Shown one piece after another: positions 11,433 through 53,098 of a stretch of DNA of 64,000 nucleotides; within the stretch, counting starts at the first letter, position 1; each line of letters opens with the position of its first letter. The notes under the pieces were generated by a model. That model ran no database searches and was not told the DNA's origin. It was given only the letters and a program-made list of their open reading frames with translations. The position numbers were made by a program, and so were the translations under genes. Origin of the DNA: Naegleria gruberi (taxonomy: Eukaryota); the NCBI GenBank assembly GCA_000004985.1, contig GG738871.1; one strand, 5' to 3'.

Positions 11433-12015
11433 TTATTGGTTATTATTGGCTACATTTCCTCCATTTTGAACTGCCAACATATTGATGTAGTTAATGTAAT
11501 TGATTTTTCCTGTATTTTCTGGGTCAACATTAGCAAGCAATTCGGTTGCTTCCTGTAGAGTGATTGGGTTGTCTCCATAAGTTGTCAGAGCATGTTCCAA
11601 AGTTTTGGTTCTTACTACACCATAAGGGCAATCCTCGGTTTCAAAAGTTTTAAATGCATTAATATATTGATCAACTGTGTATTGTGATTGAACACTTCTC
11701 GACATGACAGCAACAAATTCCTCAAAATCAATAGCTCCTGAATTATCAGCATCACTATCAACATAATAAATAAAATAATAATAAGGAAACCTACGCTTCC
11801 TTCATCATTTCCTGAATTTCTTCCTCCGAAGGCTTCAATCCCAATGTTCTCATTAATGTACCTAATTCTTCCTGTTCGATTGATCCACCTCCATCTCTAT
11901 CGACAAGTTGAAAAATTTCTCTATATCTTCTTACATCTTCGTCCGAAACTTGATGACCAAGCACCGTTGATTCAGCTTTTGAAGTTGGTGCAATGTAGCT
12001 TTGTTTTTTCTTCAT
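11433..12015 (-). CDS. EF-hand calcium-binding protein (calmodulin/myosin-light-chain-like); exons 11795-12015 and 11433-11754, 40-nt intron
   Basis: Exon 1 reads MKKKQSYIAPTSKAE...YREIFQLVDRDGGGSIEQEELGTLMRTLGLKPSEEEIQEMMKEA. Exon 2 begins DADNSGAIDFEEFVAVMSRS..., so two canonical 12-residue EF loops are reconstituted across a GTAGGT...ttgatag intron. Confidence 0.8.
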
Positions 12016-12141: not shown

Positions 12142-13809
12142 TTACTTGAAGAGCTTTTCGAAGGTTTCGAAACCACCAGCAAGATTCTTAACATTTTCCA
12201 AACCATTTTCGTTCAAAATTCTTTGGGCCATATATCCTCTCATACCAATTTTACAATATGTTACAATAGTCTTATCCTTTGGAAGTTCAGAAATCTTTTC
12301 TCTCAATTGTTCAATTGGGATATGGATAGCACCTTCAAAGTGACCAGATTGGAATTCTCTTGGAGTTCTAACGTCAACCAAAGCATATTGATCTCTGTTA
12401 GCCAAAACTTCTGGAATGTGAACCATTCTTTGTTCACCTCGCAAGAGACCACTAGCAATGAAGCCAATCATGTTGACTGGATCCTTAGCAGAACCATATT
12501 GTGGTGAGTAGGCAAGTTCTGATTCTTCCAAATCAAAGACAGTCATACCACCTTGAATAGCCATGGCGATAGCATTAATTCTATTGGCAATACCATTGTG
12601 TTCACCAACAATTTGAGCACCCAAAATCTTACCATAATTTTCCTTAGAAGTGTCGAAAATCAATTTGAGAATCATTCTCTTAGCACCTGGATAATAACCA
12701 GCATGGTCATTGACAGGAGTGTAAACCTTTTCATAAGTTGTGTATCCAACTCTTTGGAGACTCTTTTCACTGGCACCAGTACCAGCAATAGTATAGTTGA
12801 AACCACCCATAATACTTGTACCTTGGGCACCTCTGAATGAATCTGGAGTCTTACCAAACATATGGTTGACTGCAATTCTTCCTTGTCTGTTAGCAATACC
12901 TGCCAATGGAATTTGAGTCCTATTCTTCAAAACGAAATCTTCAATTTCAGTGTTGTCACCACAAGCATAAATATCAGGATCAGAAGTTTGACAGTTTTCA
13001 TTAATTACAATACCACCTCTTGGACCAACCTTCAAACCAGATTCGACAGCCAATTTGTTTTCTGGCTTAACACCAACAGATAAAAGGACGAAATCAGCAT
13101 TAACAACCTTTCCACTTTCAAGATGAACATTAACAGTTCCATTTTCACCTTCTCCGAATTTAACACACTTTTCTTTCAATAATAAATTAACACCACTAGC
13201 CTTATAATCTTCCATCAATGGTTGAACCATTTCCTTATCCATTGGTGGCATAATTTGATCCAATAATTCAATAATGCTGACATTGACACCAGCATGAGTG
13301 ATAGCTTCAGCAACTTCACATCCAATGAAACCACCTCCGATGATAACACCCTTCTTTCCTGGAACAATGTGTTGCTTAATCTTGTCCATATCTTCCAATG
13401 AACGTAAAATGTGAATAAGTGGATTATTAATACCTTCCCATGGTGGAATAATTGGTTCAGCACCAGTTGAAAGAACTAGCTTATCATAATTTTCGGAATA
13501 TTCAGATTCCTTAGCCTTGCAAATAACTTGCTTGTTGGCTCTATCGATTTTGATGACTTCAGTTTCAACTCTGACATCAATGTTGTATCTTTTTTTTAAA
13601 GTATCAACTCCGGTAACAATCAAACTGTCTCTGGAAGCAATTTGACCACCAAGAAAATATGGCATACCACAGTTAGCAAATGAAGGATTCTTTCCCTTTT
13701 CGAACAAGACAATAGAAACCTTTTCGCAAATTCTTCTAAGTCTAGTGGCAGCAGAAGCACCTCCAGCGACACCACCAACAACTACAACTTTGTGAATCAA
13801 TGATGACAT
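12142..13809 (-). CDS. Bacterial-type pyridine nucleotide-disulfide oxidoreductase (CoA-disulfide reductase/NADH oxidase family) fused to C-terminal rhodanese domain
   Basis: Intronless 555-aa ORF. It has an FAD-binding GGVAGG motif and the hallmark redox cysteine motif SFANCGMPY of the CoADR/Nox/Npx family. A second dinucleotide-binding motif GGGFIGCE follows. The C-terminal rhodanese module carries active-site YCKIGMRG. Codon usage matches the host. Confidence 0.85.
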   Translation of the reverse strand: MSSLIHKVVVVGGVAGGASAATRLRRICEKVSIVLFEKGKNPSFANCGMPYFLGGQIASRDSLIVTGVDTLKKRYNIDVRVETEVIKIDRANKQVICKAKESEYSENYDKLVLSTGAEPIIPPWEGINNPLIHILRSLEDMDKIKQHIVPGKKGVIIGGGFIGCEVAEAITHAGVNVSIIELLDQIMPPMDKEMVQPLMEDYKASGVNLLLKEKCVKFGEGENGTVNVHLESGKVVNADFVLLSVGVKPENKLAVESGLKVGPRGGIVINENCQTSDPDIYACGDNTEIEDFVLKNRTQIPLAGIANRQGRIAVNHMFGKTPDSFRGAQGTSIMGGFNYTIAGTGASEKSLQRVGYTTYEKVYTPVNDHAGYYPGAKRMILKLIFDTSKENYGKILGAQIVGEHNGIANRINAIAMAIQGGMTVFDLEESELAYSPQYGSAKDPVNMIGFIASGLLRGEQRMVHIPEVLANRDQYALVDVRTPREFQSGHFEGAIHIPIEQLREKISELPKDKTIVTYCKIGMRGYMAQRILNENGLENVKNLAGGFETFEKLFK

Positions 13810-14127
13810 TTTGAGCTATTTTGTTTGTATAATTTTTGGGTAGAGTTGTATGATGCTTGTTGGCTATTTATTCAAACCATGACGAGGCCACTTGGAGAAC
13901 TAAAAAGGTGAAATTAGTGTCGGCGAAAAATATTGGGGCCGAAATGTTGAACGTAATGATGGGAGAGAAGGCACAATTGCCTGGTTTCTCCATTACTCAA
14001 AAGACACCTCAAGACAAGGATGGAAATTACATGTATCTTGAGTTGTCTGGATAATAAAATGACAAACATTTTTTTAATTGAAAAAACCACAATAAATTAA
14101 GCATCACATGGAGGGAAAGAGCAAGAC

Positions 14128-14300
14128 ACTCTTACCTTGCATGAATAGTTAGATTTTTGTTACGTTAATCACTCCTGGGTACTACTCTCGAATATCATCT
14201 TTAATGATACAAGACACGGACTTGGGATAATAATTTGGAATGCTCCTACGGCTGTATGTGACCGAAATCGGATACAGTGATTCATATGCGTCCCAAATCT
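14128..14300 (+). ncRNA. Candidate small structured RNA (U1-snRNA-like 5' end, Sm-like site, terminal stem-loop)
   Basis: GC-elevated island within AT-rich spacer. The 5' segment ACUCUUACCUUG is complementary to the GTAAGT/GTAAGA donor consensus seen in local introns. An AUCAC loop-like element is present. AUAAUUUGGAA lies where a Sm site would sit before a terminal hairpin, CUGUAU-GUGA-CCG-AAAU-CGG-AUACAG. No ORF. Strand and ends are uncertain. Confidence 0.25.
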
Positions 14301-14370
14301 TTCTGGTTTTTCTTTTGGTTCTGTTGTAAAAGATTTAACTGTTTGAGTTTTGGATTCTAAAGTTTTAATT

Positions 14371-37031: not shown

Positions 37032-38353
37032 TTACAACAATGAAGCAATGAAAGAAATCAAAGCAATCAAAAGTACAGAGAATGAAGAAACAGAGCTAGA
37101 ATTAATCTTACTTGATTTTGGTGAGGCCTTTGGTGAAATAGTTGGAGTGACAACATCAGCAGCTGGAGCAGGATCAACACAAGCATCATTTGGAGAGGAC
37201 AATGAAATAGCTGAAGGATTTGGAATACCAATAGCAGCAACAGCAATTCTACCACCAGCATTACCAGTAGCAGAAGTTGAAGTACCATCATCTCTAGTGG
37301 TGTGAAGAACCAAACCACGTCCAATAATATTTCTAACACCAGTCAATTCAATCAAATCAACATTGAAATCAAAAGTAGCAATACCACTATCATCAGCAGT
37401 AACGTTACCTAAATCACCAACGTGTCTTTCAGTAGATCCTGGATAACCGTGTGTCTTATTGAATGGATTGAAATGGCCACCAGTTCTAGTACCATCTGTT
37501 AAATCAAGTTCACCATAAGTGTGAATATGCAAACCATGAGTTGATTGAGCAGTCAATCCACAAATTTTACCATAAACTCTAGTCAATCCACTACCTGAAT
37601 TATATGAGAAAATAACTCTACCAGTAACATTACCAGTTGCAGCAGCAGTCTTTTGGAAAACAGCAACACCAATATTATCAGTATAAACATCATTATAAGT
37701 CATAGTATTAGCAGCATTATTTGCAATACCAATTACACAATGAGCTGCAGGATTACTGGCATTACCAGTTGGTTGAGCAATTTTACCCAAATCAGCTGCC
37801 ATATGTAAACGAATAGCTCTACCAACAACACTAATACTTCCATTAAATTGTGGAAGAGTTGAAGTAATAACACCTGAATATCCCTTTGATAAATCAATAT
37901 TACCCAAATCACCAATGTGAATATCACTTCCTGTATTATCAGATGGAAGTGCATGATTCTTACCATATGGATTATAATGTCCACCAGTTGCAGTAGCATC
38001 AGCTAATTTATCATCATTATTATTATTATTATTATTATTAATATATTTGTTACAATATTAAATATATTTGTTACAATTAATATTAAAAGTATTTAAAACA
38101 TACCAATATAACCATATTGATGAATGTGGAATCCTAATGTTTTACCTTGCAAAGCAGTTGGTACAGTTGATTGATCCAATGACCAAGCAACACTTGTAGT
38201 TCCATCACTTGATTGTGTGAAATAAACTGCTCCTTTTAATCCTTTAGCATAGGTTGTACCTCTCAAGAGACAATGAGCAATTTGACCATTAATTGATGAA
38301 ATTAATGAAGCAATGAGAACAAGCAATGTAATTAATAGTAATTTAGAATTCAT
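37032..38353 (-). CDS. Secreted/GPI-anchored protein with two tandem Cu/Zn superoxide dismutase domains; exons 38104-38353 and 37032-38002, 101-nt intron
   Basis: Signal peptide MNSKLLLITLLVLIASLISSINGQ. Domain 1 has GFHIHQYG...GGHYNP...KNHALP...DIHIGDLGN...IRLHMAADLG...GNASNPAAHCVIGI. Domain 2 has HGLHIHTYG...GGHFNP...KTHGYP...ERHVGDLGN...LVLHTTRDDG...GNAGGRIAVAAIGI. The C-terminal hydrophobic tail SVSSFSVLLIALISFIASLL is GPI-signal-like. The intron has a GTATGT donor, contains an (AAT)n run and a 17-bp direct repeat, and uses the only AG available (aaattag). Confidence 0.85.
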
Positions 38354-47726: not shown

Positions 47727-49989
47727 ATGAATACAATCTTCTTCAACGTTGAAAATAAGCCTATCGCAGCTTTTGCTGTTGTTTACTTGAGTGAACAAAA
47801 AGTAAACTTTAAAGTTTCAAAGAATCCAGGTATCACTTTGGCTGAATCTGCCAGTGGGTAGGTGTCTTTCTTTATTATTATTTTTATAATAATAATAATA
47901 ATTAATTTTATTATTGTTGTTGATGATGATTAAAAAGTGTGAGAGGAAACTTTAATGTTGCTCAAGTTCTTTCAAAGAATACTAAACTCGCAGCTCAAAA
48001 TACTGATGACGTTTTTGTTGCTTTTGAAACTGCTAGTGAAATTGCTAAATCAGGACTTATTGAAGAATTGGATGTTTGCATGCAAAGATTAGATGCTTTA
48101 CTTACAACCAAGACATATTTCTCTGGTGAAGATTTGTCTGTTTGTGATTTGTGTATTTATGAAAGTCTTAAACATCACAAATTAGTTATGGGATATTTGA
48201 AGAGATTTGAAAAATCAATTCCAAATGTTGTTCGTTATTTCTTCACTATTCATAGAAATCCAAAGATTCAACAAGTTGTTAAAATTTTGGATAATGCTGC
48301 TAAAGCTATGACTAGTACTGATGAAGTTTTAAATCCAACTCCTGCTGCAAGGATAACAAGTCAAATTGTGACAAGACTGAAAAGAAGGAATCTCAACCTG
48401 AAATTAATTTGGAACTTCCACATGCTCAAATGGGTAAAGTTGTTACCAGATTCCCACCTGAAGCATCTGGTTTCCTTCATATTGGTCACGCTAAGGCTGC
48501 TTTGATGAATAATTATTTTGCTAAGAAATATAATGGTAAACTTATTATGAGATTTGATGATACTAATCCAGATAAGGAAAGAGAAGAATATGAACATGCT
48601 ATTCTCTCAGATTTGGAAAGTTTAGGTGTTAAACCTGATATTCATGTTCGTTCATCTGATCACTTTGATAAGTGTATTGAATTTGCTGAACAATTGATTA
48701 GAGAAGGAAAGGCTTATATGGATGATACTGCAGTTGAAGAATTGAGAAGAATGAAAATGGAAGGTATTGAATCTGCTAACAGAAATAATTCTGTTGATAA
48801 GAATATGGAAATGTGGAAGGAATTACTTGCTGGTACTGAAAATGGAAAGAAGTCAGTCCTCAGAGCTAAGATTGATATGAAATCATTGAATAAGACTATG
48901 CGTGATCCTGTTCTTTTCAGAAGTAAGGATAAACCTCATCCAAAACTTGGTGATAAGTATAAGGCATATCCAACTTATGACTTTGTTTGTCCAGTTGTTG
49001 ACAGTTTGGATGGTGTTACTCATGCTTTGAGAACTTCTGAATATAACGATAGAAATGAACAATACTATTGGATTATTGATGCTTTGGGTATTAGAAAGCC
49101 ATTCTTGTACGATTTCAGTAGATTGAACTTTGCTAATACTGTCATGTCTAAGCGTAAATTGCAAAAGATTGTTGATATTGGAGTTGTTGAAGGATGGAAT
49201 GATCCTCGTTTCCCAACTGTTCAAGGTCTCTTACGTAGAGGTTTGACTGTTGAAGCTTTGTACAATTTCATTTTGGAACAAGGTGCTTCTCGTAACGTTG
49301 TTACTATTCAATGGGAAAAGTTGTGGGCTGAAAATAAGAAGGTTATTGATCCAAAGGTTCCAAGATATTGTGCTATTGAAAAGACTGATATTGTTAAATT
49401 CCATTTATCAAATGGTCCACAAACTATGGAATCAAAGGAAAATGCAAAGCACAAGAAGAATGATTCTCTTGGTAAGAAGACTACCTATTATACCAATACC
49501 ATTTATTTGGATAGAGAAGATGCTGCTGCCATTGAACAAAATGAAGAAGTTACTTTGATGGATTGGGGTAATGCTATTATTCAAGAAATTGTTAAGGATG
49601 ACAGTGGTAAGGTTGTTGAATTGAAGGGTGTTTTGCACTTGGAAGGTGACTTTAAGAAGACTAAGAAGAAGTTGACTTGGTTGCCAGTTAACCCAGAAGT
49701 TAATACTGAAAATGTTCAAATTGTTCATTTCGGTCATTTGATTAACAAGATTTCTTTATCTTCTGATGATAATATTGAAGATGTTGTTAATCGTAATTCC
49801 AAGACTGTTACTACTTCAATTGGTGATCATAATTTAAAGTCATTGAAGAAGGGTGATATTATTCAATTGGAAAGAAGAGGTTATTTCATTTGTGATGTTC
49901 CATTTGATGGAAAGTCATTGACTTTATTCAATATTCCAGATAGTGTTTCAACAAAGACAACTGCTGCTGCTGCTTCTACTTCTAAATAA
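47727..49989 (+). CDS. gluS: Glutamyl-tRNA synthetase (cytoplasmic-type, GST-like N-terminal domain + class I catalytic core); exons 47727-47857 and 47938-49989; apparent 1-nt frame shift ~48340-48400
   Basis: Exon 1 is MNTIFFNVENKPIAAFAVVYLSEQKVNFKVSKNPGITLAESASG, followed by an 80-nt GTAGGT...aaaaag intron. GST-C-like region: TKTYFSGEDLSVCDLCIYESLKHHKLV.... Then, in the +1 frame: KTEKKESQPEINLELPHAQMGKVVTRFPPEASGFLHIGHAKAALMNNYFAKKYNGKLIMRFDDTNP.... The HIGH motif and the rest of the GluRS core run to stop TAA at 49987. Confidence 0.85.
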
Positions 49990-49993
49990 AAAA

Positions 49994-52900
49994 ATGATAA
50001 ACTCTAAACCAAAGAGTTTACTTCAAATTGCTAAAGATCGGAAAAACAAATTATCATCACAATCTTCTCAATCATCTCAATCATCACAAACATCAAATGA
50101 TAATAATAACACTAATTCATCATCATCATTAACAATATTGAATCATTCTAGTAATACTAGTAGTAATAACAATGTTAATACTACTAATAATATTGGAAAT
50201 AATAGTACTACTACTTCTACTAATAAGACGACATCAACATGTAAATTAATAATTAAACCCAAATCTTCCATTAGACTCTATTCCGAAACTGTTGATTTAT
50301 CATTTGAATATTCAAGTGATAAAGAAAGTGACAATGACGATATTCAAATCATTCATACTCCAGTTAATAAGAAACTTTCAACTCCTTCATCATCACTAAC
50401 ATCACTATCATCAACTACTTCCACTCCATCATCACTTTTAAAATCACTATCATTACTACCAAATAATAATAATAACATGACCACTTTAAAAACCACAACT
50501 AAGAATGAAATATCAAATAATAATAATAATTTATCATCATCATTATCAACATCTACAAATTTAATAGTAGAAACATATAGTTCATTATTAGAAGATTTAA
50601 CTCAACAAGATGATGATATAAATAGTAATTCATTAAATATAAATAGTAATTCATTAAATATTAAAGAACCATTAATTAAAAAAAGAAAACAATTTAAAAT
50701 TCCAAGTTTTTACATGACAGATGAAGAAATTAAACATGACATTTCTTTATCTAAAACAATAATTCCAATTTTAAATATTCAAGATAAATTTTCAATTCAT
50801 TTTACAAAACCATTTTGGACAATTTATAAAGATGGAAATGAAATTCTATTATTAGATTTTAGAAAACCAATATTTACAAATTTATTATTTTTAAAATTAA
50901 TTTATTATTTTAATTTTAATAAAACTAAAATAATTGAAAAATCTAAATTTATACATTCAATTAAAGATTTAATTATTTTATTAAAACCATATAGTACTTT
51001 ATTAGTAAATAATGAAAATTTAGAACAATTAAAAAAGGAAATTGAAATTATTTTAAATGAAGATTTAAAAAATAATTTTATAGAAAATGAAAATGTAAAA
51101 TATGTAAATAATTTTCAATATTTAATTTTAGAATATTTAAATACAAATATTCATAAATTTAAAAATACTAAAAAATCTAGAAATTTAAGAAAATTAAGAA
51201 TGTGTGAAGAATTACTAAAAAAGGAATTTAATTCTAAATTTATAAAAAGTTTTGAAAAATCTGAAAATTCATTTTATTCAGATTTTAATTTTAATTTATA
51301 TGATTTCATGTCAATTTATTTTAATAAGGAAAAATTTGAATATTTAAATCTAAATGAAATTGATTTTAATAATTCCATAAAAGAATTTCATAAAATTTTA
51401 AATGAACTCATCATTTCAACTATATACTATAATAAGGGTCAATATATAGGTGATATTATAGCAACAAATTTATTAAAAAAATCCATAAAAAATAATACTA
51501 CTATATATGGCAGTGAATACCAAAATAGTAATAATGATGAAAAACAACACCAATATTATATTAATAGTGATAATAGTGATAATGATGATAGTGATGATAG
51601 TGATAGTGATGAAGAAGAAGAAGAAGAAGAAAATGAAATAATTCTAGATAGTCATATTCCACATGGATTTGGAAGTTGGAAATTTATAGAAGAAAATAAT
51701 GAAATTTTCTATAAAGGGGAATGGAAAAAAGGGAAAAAGGAAGGATTTGGTATTTTACAAACATTTGAAATATTATATGAAGGAGAATGGAAAGAGAATG
51801 AAATGAATGGATTTGGAATATTTAAAATATTAAATGGATATCATAAAGGTAGTATTTATTATGGTAATTTTAAAAAAGGAAAGAGAAATGGATTTGGAAT
51901 TCAATTTTATAAATATGAAGGAAATAATGAAATATTAAAAGATGATTTGAATGAATTTAATGAATTTTATAGAGGTGAATGGTTAAATGATGTTAGAAAT
52001 GGAAAAGGTGAATTTAAATCAAAATATGAATGGAAATTGGGAGAATGGAAAAAACATGAATTTAAAAATGGAATTTTACTAATTAAGGAATGTTTAGAAA
52101 TTCAAGATTCAATCATTACAAATTGTATTCATTCACAAATAGAAATTGAAAAATATTCAAAAAAAACAAAAAAATCTCAAATTCCTTCAACTATACTTCC
52201 ATTTATATTTTCATTAGATAATTTAGATAAATTAACAGTTGTAGATGCAATTATTGCATATGGTAATCAATCTAAATCACCTAAACGTACAATTTATAAT
52301 GGTTATTGTTTTAGATCAAAATTGGAAAGTCGTTGGGCTAAATTCTTTGAATGTTGTGGAATTGAATATCAATACGAATGTAAAACTTTTATTTTAAAAG
52401 ATGGAACATCATATACTCCTGATTTTTATTTACCTTTTCTCAATTTTTGGATTGAAATTAAACCAAATTATCCAAGTGAAGAAGAAAGAGTTAAAGCTCA
52501 ATTATTAAGTTTTGTTTTACAAAAACAGACTAGTAATAATAATCAACATAATGAATTGACAGAATTTGAAAAGAAATATGAAAGATATTTACAATCAAAT
52601 CCAAGAATTTTCATTTTATATGGAGATGTTAGTGCTCCATTTATTAAGAAATTTCAATCAGGAGGAATGGCAATTGAATTTTTCAAAACAGATCAACAAG
52701 AAAATTCTATTCAGAATAGAACAAATAAGAGAATTACACCTCCAAGGAGTGGCAATACTACTTCTACTACCAGTAATCCAATTAGAGAATCTGTTCTATT
52801 TAATACTACTGAACCATTGGGCTGGTGTCAATGTCATCATTGTGGTAAAATTTCACTTGAATATAGATGTAAACCCAAGTGTTGTACTAACAAGACAGCA

Positions 52901-53098
52901 GATAATAGTACTGCTTCGACAAGTTTAGTTGATTCAGTGGTGACATCAGAGCTTGGTCCAACTTTGAGTAATGCTTATTATGCAGTTACCAAATTATCGT
53001 TTGATGAATGGAGAGTGAGAAATGAAAATACATTCTTTAACAGTATAACACAAGAGATTGAAATTACAACAGAAAAGAAACGAAGTAAATTCTTTTAA
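49994..53098 (+). CDS. Large protein with S/N/T-rich N-terminal half, MORN repeats and a C-terminal PD-(D/E)xK-nuclease-like/zinc-binding region
   Basis: ATG at 49994, 4 nt after the GluRS stop. MORN repeats: YKGEWKKGKKEGFGIL, YEGEWKENEMNGFGIF, YYGNFKKGKRNGFGIQFY, YRGEWLNDVRNGKGEF, LGEWKKHEFKNGILL. C-terminal block: NGYCFRSKLESRWAKFFECCGIEYQYECKTF...GTSYTPDFYLPFLNFWIEIKPN (E...D...E-x-K order), then CQCHHCGKISLEYRCKPKCC. Confidence 0.6.
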   Translation: MINSKPKSLLQIAKDRKNKLSSQSSQSSQSSQTSNDNNNTNSSSSLTILNHSSNTSSNNNVNTTNNIGNNSTTTSTNKTTSTCKLIIKPKSSIRLYSETVDLSFEYSSDKESDNDDIQIIHTPVNKKLSTPSSSLTSLSSTTSTPSSLLKSLSLLPNNNNNMTTLKTTTKNEISNNNNNLSSSLSTSTNLIVETYSSLLEDLTQQDDDINSNSLNINSNSLNIKEPLIKKRKQFKIPSFYMTDEEIKHDISLSKTIIPILNIQDKFSIHFTKPFWTIYKDGNEILLLDFRKPIFTNLLFLKLIYYFNFNKTKIIEKSKFIHSIKDLIILLKPYSTLLVNNENLEQLKKEIEIILNEDLKNNFIENENVKYVNNFQYLILEYLNTNIHKFKNTKKSRNLRKLRMCEELLKKEFNSKFIKSFEKSENSFYSDFNFNLYDFMSIYFNKEKFEYLNLNEIDFNNSIKEFHKILNELIISTIYYNKGQYIGDIIATNLLKKSIKNNTTIYGSEYQNSNNDEKQHQYYINSDNSDNDDSDDSDSDEEEEEEENEIILDSHIPHGFGSWKFIEENNEIFYKGEWKKGKKEGFGILQTFEILYEGEWKENEMNGFGIFKILNGYHKGSIYYGNFKKGKRNGFGIQFYKYEGNNEILKDDLNEFNEFYRGEWLNDVRNGKGEFKSKYEWKLGEWKKHEFKNGILLIKECLEIQDSIITNCIHSQIEIEKYSKKTKKSQIPSTILPFIFSLDNLDKLTVVDAIIAYGNQSKSPKRTIYNGYCFRSKLESRWAKFFECCGIEYQYECKTFILKDGTSYTPDFYLPFLNFWIEIKPNYPSEEERVKAQLLSFVLQKQTSNNNQHNELTEFEKKYERYLQSNPRIFILYGDVSAPFIKKFQSGGMAIEFFKTDQQENSIQNRTNKRITPPRSGNTTSTTSNPIRESVLFNTTEPLGWCQCHHCGKISLEYRCKPKCCTNKTADNSTASTSLVDSVVTSELGPTLSNAYYAVTKLSFDEWRVRNENTFFNSITQEIEITTEKKRSKFF

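Follow-up and report, generated by a model that had tools for sequence, protein, structure and literature searches.

How a gene for a bacterial-type sulfur enzyme came to reside in an amoeboflagellate genome, and what its product may do there, is the question raised by positions 12142-13809 of a 64,000-nt stretch of Naegleria gruberi DNA (GenBank assembly GCA_000004985.1, contig GG738871.1; hereafter the window). On the minus strand this region is a single unbroken open reading frame (ORF) with an ATG start and a TAA stop. Its 555 codons encode a product identical over the whole length to N. gruberi XP_002676667.1 (EFC43923.1, NAEGRDRAFT_68286), which carries only the label "predicted protein" and whose encoding scaffold is 417 kb long. 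The host is a heterolobosean amoeboflagellate (Discoba) and no amoebozoan. The original prediction, made from the letters alone, described the ORF as a fusion of a coenzyme A (CoA)-disulfide reductase/NADH oxidase with a rhodanese domain and as a candidate for an ancient horizontal acquisition. Full-text literature searches found no paper on this gene in any eukaryote. Taken together, the results below make it likely that the ORF is a nuclear persulfide reductase gene of planctomycete-like ancestry, acquired before Heterolobosea diversified and akin to the genes of jakobids. Coordinates of the features are collected in Table 1.

The predicted architecture was present, as seen in the ORF, by Pfam and in alignments: an oxidoreductase module (Pfam Pyr_redox was also matched, E 4e-19), a dimerisation domain and a C-terminal rhodanese domain (RHD), with one cysteine in SFANCGMPY and another in CKIGMRG. 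Solved relatives were colinear with the protein over residues 5-551; the best match was Npsr of Shewanella loihica (3NTA, E 2e-146), followed by CoADR-RHD of Bacillus anthracis (3ICR, 4e-143) and CoAPR of Enterococcus faecalis (EfCoAPR, 8A56, 3e-131), and Npsr of Archaeoglobus fulgidus (AfNpsr, 6PFZ) was also matched over the full length (E 1e-98). In the same sequence search, CoADR, NADH peroxidase and NADH oxidase (Nox) enzymes lacking the RHD ranked far below those containing it. As modelled by AlphaFold (pLDDT 80.3, pTM 0.73), the Naegleria protein is predicted to superpose over the whole chain on 3NTA, 3ICR, 8A56 and 6PFZ (TM 0.83-0.88) and over the first 450 residues only on the RHD-less enzymes (TM 0.68-0.72). 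Scores fell short of the NCBIfam cut-offs for the CoA-disulfide reductase equivalog TIGR03385 (422.8 versus 578.8 bits), NF007123 (337.5 versus 458), NF010037 (305.9 versus 394) and the H2O-forming NADH oxidase NF046103 (223.4 versus 600 bits). Because these scores lie below cut-off and the RHD-containing enzymes match over the full length, the protein was assigned to the RHD-containing subgroup and not to canonical CoADR or Nox. It is a full-length eukaryotic member of the known Npsr/CoADR-RHD/CoAPR family, in which a pyridine nucleotide-disulfide oxidoreductase (PNDOR) is joined to a C-terminal rhodanese domain. About one third of the bacterial homologues, among them L013, L015, L020, P0121 and P0514, are long forms of ~820 aa that carry additional TusA and DsrE-type sulfur-relay domains at the C-terminus, which fit a family of sulfur-trafficking enzymes; the short form of ~550 aa is seen throughout the eukaryotic copies and the planctomycete clade.

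Orthologues, which the original prediction had proposed to seek in related amoebae, are present in N. fowleri (85% identity), other Naegleria, two environmental heteroloboseans (82% and 74%) and Willaertia magna (72%). The gene already existed before Naegleria and Willaertia diverged, and the proposed old acquisition is borne out by these orthologues together with the host-like codons described below. Beyond Heterolobosea, identity falls to 54% or less. All named entries among the 120 best matches were Planctomycetota (51-54%), and in a scan of species-representative genomes Gemmataceae, Planctomycetaceae, Stieleria and Bythopirellula came first (48-51%), with other phyla next (42-50%). Bacterial homologues at 40-54% identity number in thousands, and it is among these that the eukaryotic sequences lie. 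The architecture had been called typical of Firmicutes, Proteobacteria and archaea; the nearest bacteria are instead Planctomycetota of the Pirellulales/Gemmatales. The gene is most likely of bacterial ancestry, with its greatest similarity to this phylum.

Eukaryotes were surveyed by a search of 50%-identity cluster representatives combined with cluster look-ups. The fusion was also found in the jakobids Andalucia godoyi and Stygiella incarcerata, in Entosiphon sulcatum, the ciliate Muranothrix gubernata, Trimastix marina, Mastigamoeba balamuthi and the fungus Violaceomyces palustris. Two environmental sequences carry it as well, one eukaryotic and the other probably so: P0161, closest to Muranothrix, lies on a 34-kb contig (L088) beside a gene for a PA28 proteasome activator, and P0122, most similar to the Andalucia protein, lies on a contig of 60% GC (L084) with polypyrimidine-rich spacers. 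In all, the fusion was seen in about ten eukaryote lineages, at least eight of them outside Heterolobosea, falling into two or more separate places of the bacterial tree. The distribution is patchy and does not follow the species tree; the architecture, which had been called uncommon in eukaryotes, is scattered there and not missing.

Neighbour-joining (NJ) analysis of 261 sequences (546 columns, 300 bootstraps) recovered Heterolobosea in 100% of replicates, P0122 with Andalucia in 98% and these two groups together in 73%, with 37-48% when Stygiella was added. The sister of Heterolobosea was eukaryotic in 97% of replicates, and the first bacterial clade joined consisted of at least 70% Planctomycetota in about 80%. 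Insertions at three sites (Table 1) are common to Heterolobosea, Andalucia and P0122, and their combination occurs in none of 248 bacteria. Maximum likelihood (ML) was computed with a purpose-written program, using a Gonnet-derived rate matrix, four gamma rate categories and fixed NJ-topology backbones. When the heterolobosean clade was re-attached to each branch of a 42-taxon backbone in turn, with fully optimised branch lengths, the top three positions lay in the jakobid group, with a summed RELL (resampling of estimated log-likelihoods) support of 0.96, and the best planctomycete branch was 32.6 log-likelihood units worse (standard error, SE, 18). To keep eukaryote sequences from attracting one another, each eukaryote group was also placed separately on a 197-taxon backbone made up of bacteria only. 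Heterolobosea alone went to the stem or interior of the Pirellulales/Gemmatales with a total likelihood weight of 1.00 (0.994 on the stem branch; RELL 0.84), a placement that falls on the clade stem, with long branches, simple methods and no bacterial homologue above 54% identity. Heterolobosea, Andalucia with P0122, Stygiella, Muranothrix and P0161 were each placed on this stem or inside the clade (weight 0.99-1.00, RELL 0.70-0.88); Trimastix, Entosiphon, Mastigamoeba and Violaceomyces were placed elsewhere, with a weight of at most 0.001 in it. The sole named non-planctomycete inside the planctomycete clade was a metagenome-assembled genome (MAG) of Bdellovibrionota (L014), which may represent a binning error or a transfer between bacteria.

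We read these results as placing the Naegleria gene in a planctomycete-type group that also takes in jakobids and a lineage of ciliates, and as indicating that other eukaryotes acquired related genes separately. Because the heterolobosean and jakobid genes share a nearer ancestor with each other than with any sampled bacterium, acquisition probably pre-dates the diversification of Heterolobosea, or else a later eukaryote-to-eukaryote transfer took place among discobids. Most likely the copies of Heterolobosea and jakobids go back to a single acquisition, either in an early discobid and followed by losses, or with movement between discobids. Horizontal acquisition as originally proposed thus agrees with a gene of bacterial type embedded among bacteria; a transfer specific to Naegleria does not, the jakobid genes being closest.

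A separate transfer from a planctomycete-like donor to the ancestor of Naegleria and Willaertia, apart from the jakobid and ciliate copies, would make the jakobid grouping a long-branch artefact. It would accord with heterolobosean proteins being 51-54% identical to those of planctomycetes and 44-47% identical to those of jakobids, with each planctomycete-type eukaryote group landing alone on the same stem, as repeated transfers from the same donor would also bring about, and with the weakness of the jakobid signal in rare residues, a count left unused here (5 common to Heterolobosea and Andalucia/P0122, where bacteria average 1 and reach at most 6). We nevertheless regard it as unlikely, since the 73% bootstrap with Andalucia/P0122, the eukaryotic sister in 97% of replicates and the RELL of 0.96 for jakobid branches all favour the jakobid grouping, the insertions at three sites are absent from 37 of 37 named planctomycetes, and equally long branches (Entosiphon, Mastigamoeba and the fungus) were not drawn into the group.

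As for the reaction catalysed, both GxGxxG motifs, Cys47, Cys519, G522 and R524 were invariant across the heterolobosean, other eukaryotic and planctomycete homologues, as were many residues near the catalytic motifs. Cys47 corresponds to Cys43 of S. loihica Npsr (SlNpsr) and Cys42 of EfCoAPR, and Cys519 to SlNpsr Cys531, EfCoAPR Cys508 and AfNpsr Cys519. In AfNpsr, Glu183, the counterpart of Naegleria Glu181, excludes the 2'-phosphate of NADPH according to modelling and has been proposed to select NADH over NADPH (PMC7969121). AfNpsr and bacterial Npsr enzymes reduce persulfides and polysulfide, with CoA disulfide activity undetectable (PMC7969121), and turnover of EfCoAPR requires both cysteines (PMC9405070). 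Carried over from the solved bacterial and archaeal enzymes (PMC9405070, PMC7969121), the mechanism would be that of a homodimer dependent on flavin adenine dinucleotide (FAD), in which NADH gives electrons to FAD and reduced FAD resolves a mixed disulfide, Cys47-S-S-CoA, of tightly bound CoA. The rhodanese Cys519 of the partner subunit would take sulfane sulfur from a persulfide or polysulfide, and the pantetheine arm of CoA, swinging ~25 Å between Cys519 and Cys47, would deliver it to the flavin site, from which it would exit as H2S. The physiological role may be clearing of reactive sulfur species or CoA persulfide repair in a bacterivorous, facultatively microaerophilic amoeba. By analogy, the enzyme is most likely an FAD-dependent, NADH-preferring persulfide/polysulfide reductase of the Npsr/CoADR-RHD/CoAPR type.

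Different chemistry in vivo, that of a true CoA-disulfide reductase or of an NADH oxidase/peroxidase detoxifying oxygen, would not be out of place in Naegleria, which tolerates microoxic conditions, bacterial-type Nox being present in many microaerophilic protists. The top NCBIfam models are indeed those of CoA-disulfide reductase, at 423 bits, and of H2O-forming NADH oxidase, at 223 bits, and AfNpsr has NADH oxidase activity in vitro (PMC7969121). Both scores, however, lie under the curated cut-offs (579 and 600 bits), and the rhodanese domain with its catalytic cysteine, which canonical CoADR and Nox lack, is strictly kept in every heterolobosean copy. Together with the substrate preference of the Npsr enzymes (PMC7969121) and the need of EfCoAPR for both cysteines (PMC9405070), this makes such an activity quite improbable, and persulfide/polysulfide reduction remains the preferred assignment.

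The proteins of N. gruberi, N. fowleri and Willaertia start 4-6 residues ahead of the first Rossmann strand. As no N-terminal extension precedes this strand, the Naegleria enzyme is probably cytosolic. No evidence emerged for a 5' exon encoding a targeting peptide: just 9 nt ahead of the ATG there is an in-frame TAG, and the models of the orthologues share this start position. The Stygiella copy has a presequence-like N-terminus, and the Andalucia copy is annotated as a 'mitochondrial CoA-disulfide reductase'.

This annotation could be taken as a trace of vertical inheritance, from the last eukaryotic common ancestor or the mitochondrial endosymbiont, with massive loss and no later horizontal transfer; the presence of the fusion in Discoba, ciliates, Preaxostyla, Archamoebae and one fungus and the clustering of the non-fungal eukaryotes in a sparse 45-taxon tree point the same way. 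The all-eukaryote clade of that tree was rejected as a sampling or long-branch artefact, since it was reproduced neither with 261 sequences nor in the separate ML placements. Monophyly of all eukaryotes, the broadly eukaryotic clade that had been named as the outcome contradicting horizontal acquisition, appeared in at most 1% of NJ bootstraps of the 261 sequences. Four eukaryote lineages (Trimastix, Entosiphon, Mastigamoeba and Violaceomyces) lie elsewhere in the bacterial tree, outside the planctomycete clade (weight at most 0.001), the closest bacteria are Planctomycetota and not Alphaproteobacteria, and searches with the Naegleria and Stygiella queries returned no further EukProt member among the 120 best matches of each. 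Vertical descent is accordingly very improbable.

The reductase gene has a GC content of 0.375, matching its surroundings. It is followed on its 3' side by an EF-hand (calmodulin-like) gene and preceded on its 5' side by a RING-finger gene and then Sec1. The order Sec1, RING, reductase and EF-hand is common to N. gruberi and N. fowleri, and the Willaertia magna orthologue also sits among eukaryotic neighbours. In N. fowleri an additional gene for a 630-aa TPR-repeat protein (L001 7712-9655) separates the RING gene from the reductase; in N. gruberi the spacer between them is 560 bp of intergenic DNA (13810-14370). Codon usage had been described as fully host-like and rich in G or C at third positions (GC3), like that of highly expressed genes. 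The first part holds: relative synonymous codon usage (RSCU) correlates at r = 0.86 with that of the window's remaining long ORFs taken as a pool, inside the range among those ORFs (0.76-0.98). The second was overstated, as the GC3 of 0.27 compares with a median of ~0.24 (range 0.10-0.33) for 24 window ORFs of at least 250 aa. Bias toward preferred codons is strong (effective number of codons, Nc, 31.7; AAG for 78% of Lys, TTC for 72% of Phe, GGT for 78% of Gly and GCT for 73% of Ala), compatible with high expression, and a like bias was seen in the window's Glu/Gln-tRNA synthetase (48430-49989) and Cu/Zn superoxide dismutase (37032-37802). The latter ORF, on the minus strand and 256 aa long, is more strongly codon-biased than any other in the window (Nc 26.9), and a ~58-residue N-terminal extension precedes its superoxide dismutase domain.

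The absence of introns, offered in the original prediction as a sign of transfer against neighbours said mostly to carry micro-introns, is real for the N. gruberi gene. As to the neighbours, a micro-intron was confirmed for the adjacent EF-hand gene (40 nt); its excision restores the EF-hand loop (KEA joined to DADNSGAIDFEEF). At the syntenic N. fowleri locus, introns are needed by 9 of 15 complete gene models, which lends indirect support, and not by the other 6; at the Willaertia locus they are needed by just 3 of 11. About one third of N. gruberi genes carry introns genome-wide. Between Met189 and Asp190, in phase 0, the N. fowleri orthologue itself is interrupted by an intron of 105 nt (L001 10568-10672, gtaagt...tag) at a site equivalent to window positions 13240-13245, and its reading frame stays open only with this intron removed. 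An identical exon split occurs in a low-coverage, error-ridden metagenome contig from an N. fowleri-like species (L087); the intron is absent from N. gruberi, Willaertia and two further heterolobosean contigs. By parsimony, it looks like a gain in the N. fowleri lineage within a gene of bacterial ancestry. With many neighbours lacking introns and a spliceosomal intron present in the N. fowleri orthologue, intronlessness is uninformative on transfer.

The reductase ORF is thus a genuine, well-integrated nuclear gene of N. gruberi. Bacterial DNA or an assembly artefact inside a eukaryotic scaffold, which a bacterial-type protein and an uninterrupted ORF might bring to mind, can be dismissed on the host-like GC content and codons, the eukaryotic genes on both sides (the intron-bearing EF-hand gene; RING finger and Sec1), the matching gene order and spliceosomal intron in the independent N. 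fowleri assembly, the Willaertia copy and the identity of at most 54% to any bacterial homologue.

Table 1. Features of the Naegleria gruberi reductase gene and its surroundings, and diagnostic length differences among homologues
Feature	Residues	Window position	Strand	Basis or distribution
Complete intronless coding sequence, 555 aa + stop		12142..13809	(-)	exact protein match, full-length alignment to solved relatives
FAD/NAD(P)-binding oxidoreductase module, Pfam Pyr_redox_2	7-310	12880..13791	(-)	E 5e-65
FAD-binding GxGxxG motif	G12-G-V-A-G-G17	13759..13776	(-)	invariant alignment columns
SFANCGMPY, redox-active Cys47 (codon 13669-13671)	43-51	13657..13683	(-)	alignments; PMC9405070
NAD(P)H-binding GGGFIG motif	158-163	13321..13338	(-)	alignments
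Glu181 codon, aligned to AfNpsr Glu183	181	13267..13269	(-)	alignment to 6PFZ; PMC7969121
Dimerisation domain, Pfam Pyr_redox_dim	338-437	12499..12798	(-)	E 7e-14
C-terminal rhodanese domain	471-551	12157..12399	(-)	Pfam Rhodanese E 1e-19, structure superposition
Rhodanese active-site loop CKIGMRG, Cys519 (codon 12253-12255)	519-525	12235..12255	(-)	alignments; PMC9405070, PMC7969121
Conserved bipartite element TTCGGCcccaatatttTTCGCCgac, 111-135 nt before ATG		13919..13943	(-)	cross-species motif comparison
EF-hand gene intron, 40 nt, GT..AG (gtaggt...gatag)		11755-11794	(-)	splicing restores EF-hand loop
Length difference 1	E348-P374			24 residues in 36/37 planctomycetes; Heterolobosea 25; P0122 27, Andalucia 29
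Length difference 2	Q399-R410			9 residues in 242/248 bacteria, including all 37 named planctomycetes; Heterolobosea 10; Stygiella 10, Trimastix 10, P0122 11, Andalucia 11
Length difference 3	G536-G545			7 residues in 37/37 planctomycetes; Heterolobosea 8; P0122 8, Andalucia 10

A GC-rich element noticed earlier upstream of the gene was located as the string TCGGCGAAAAATATTGGGGCCG at 13920-13941 (plus-strand letters), 111-132 nt before the ATG, and proved to be conserved in N. fowleri and Willaertia. The N. fowleri counterpart is TTCGGCccaaagataaTTCGGCgac, ~157-180 nt before the ATG (L001 9820-9844), and the Willaertia counterpart, in inverted orientation, is ATTTCGGCgctgttggtgGTCGCCt, ~135-156 nt upstream (L002 9845-9866). 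The consensus across the three species is TTCGGC-N10-KTCGSC. The heptamer TTCGSCS occurs twice in the window, both times within the element, and the full pattern occurs once (0.05 matches would be expected with one mismatch tolerated). When the regions upstream of the gene in N. gruberi and N. fowleri were aligned locally, the best alignment was centred on the element and scored 21; shuffled upstream alignments scored 14.1 ± 1.7, and 1 of 300 shuffles reached 21. Since the upstream neighbour differs among the three species (RING, TPR and Beclin/APG6), the motif travels with the reductase gene. An RNA-structure reading was rejected: a weak 5-bp stem was seen in the N. gruberi copy only, none in N. 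fowleri and Willaertia, and there was no Rfam match. A scan for bacterial promoters and terminators yielded nothing of use in this eukaryotic setting. The element is a candidate transcription-factor site that would act at the DNA level.

Several points weigh against the reading given at the outset. The phylogeny depends on NJ and a home-made ML program with fixed backbones, the ML gap to the planctomycete placement is only ~1.8 SE, and the eukaryotic branches are long (0.4-0.7 substitutions/site), so that both the grouping with jakobids and the position on the long planctomycete stem may owe part of their support to long-branch attraction. Every eukaryote sequence has a higher identity with proteins of planctomycetes (45-54%) than with those of other groups of eukaryotes (38-47%). 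The function is assigned through similarity to the RHD-containing subgroup only, the score being under the cut-off of bona fide CoA-disulfide reductases, and substrate range varies among the characterised members BaCoADR-RHD, SlNpsr, EfCoAPR and AfNpsr. Literature searches gave no biochemical, expression or localisation data for eukaryotic family members, and the cytosolic placement, itself drawn from the N-terminus, stands beside the mitochondrial annotation of the Andalucia protein and the presequence-like extension of Stygiella's. With these points counted, a planctomycete-like persulfide reductase gene shared with jakobids remains the probable answer. A bolder version can be offered only tentatively: one ancient transfer from a stem planctomycete-like bacterium to an early discobid, perhaps with the ciliate lineage receiving the gene at the same time or later, its retention over hundreds of millions of years, by Heterolobosea in the cytosol and by jakobids in mitochondria, and dedicated control through TTCGGC-N10-KTCGSC in Naegleria and Willaertia. 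It would amount to a previously unrecognised eukaryotic pathway of reactive-sulfur/H2S homeostasis, lacking in animals and present in N. fowleri.

Persulfide and H2S handling in eukaryotes is usually credited to SQR, ETHE1, stand-alone rhodanese, and thioredoxin or glutathione systems. A CoA-dependent NADH:persulfide reductase kept in Naegleria, Willaertia and jakobids would be an additional route. The N. fowleri orthologue (85% identity) is without a human counterpart and is a conceivable selective drug target in this pathogen. The locus offers a clean, integrated case of a planctomycete-type gene in Discoba, and the heterolobosean-jakobid link and the lineage-specific intron gain may help to date transfers and to follow the domestication of acquired genes. 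Current views are not overturned, bacterial-type redox enzymes in microaerophilic protists being a familiar pattern.

Elsewhere in the window, a 1034-aa ORF with MORN repeats was observed at 49994-53098 on the plus strand. The 50-52 kb region is very AT-rich (GC 0.19-0.22) with large swings in GC skew, short tandem repeats lie at 50616-50661 and 51564-51831, and a weak, sub-threshold Pfam match to phage endonuclease I (E 2.6e-4) was also noted.

Among known systems, canonical CoADR (Staphylococcus aureus Cdr, 1YQZ; TIGR03385), H2O-forming NADH oxidase and NADH peroxidase resemble the Naegleria protein in their PNDOR fold and in having one redox cysteine, set in the same motif, but they have no rhodanese domain and act on CoA disulfide or O2/H2O2, not on persulfides. 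Npsr of S. loihica PV-4 (3NTA, 3NTD, 3NT6), the best solved sequence match, is much closer: it is colinear over residues 6-551 (TM 0.87) and has the SFANCG(L/M)PY cysteine, a C-x-x-G-x-R-G loop with the rhodanese cysteine, and the Glu that follows the NAD-binding strand. The two proteins are ~42% identical by Foldseek structural alignment; the proteobacterial enzyme, tied to sulfur respiration, has an insertion of ~20 residues near residues 211-240 that the Naegleria protein lacks, whereas the latter has a heterolobosean-specific 3-residue insertion, KEN, at residues ~388-390. The B. anthracis CoADR-RHD (3ICR, 3ICS, 3ICT) and EfCoAPR (8A56) likewise share the two-domain architecture, dimeric PNDOR fold and both cysteines (TM 0.85-0.88), and every conserved Naegleria residue is consistent with their swinging-pantetheine mechanism (PMC9405070). 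Their identity to the Naegleria protein in structural alignments is ~41-44%, and Planctomycetota are phylogenetically closer. The Firmicutes genes lie in CstR-regulated sulfide-stress operons, whereas the Naegleria gene stands alone among unrelated eukaryotic neighbours with a conserved upstream motif of its own.

The closest bacterial sequences (51-54%) are planctomycete proteins labelled 'FAD-dependent oxidoreductase / CoA-disulfide reductase', as in Anatilimnocola floriformis, Lignipirellula cremea and Gemmataceae MAGs. They have the same short ~550-aa form without TusA/DsrE domains; none is characterised, and they are without the three insertions common to the heterolobosean and jakobid genes. 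Planctomycete gene neighbourhoods gave no functional clue, being unconserved, with only sporadic DsrE and DsbD_2 neighbours. The homologues of Andalucia godoyi (P0420) and Stygiella incarcerata (P0126), with identities of 44-47%, are the closest eukaryotic relatives outside Heterolobosea and have the same fusion. Stygiella has a 22-residue presequence-like extension, while the Naegleria and Willaertia proteins begin at the Rossmann fold, and Andalucia and P0122 have further, longer insertions not found in Naegleria. The Andalucia copy nevertheless has indels in common with Heterolobosea, and both jakobids are grouped with Heterolobosea in the trees.

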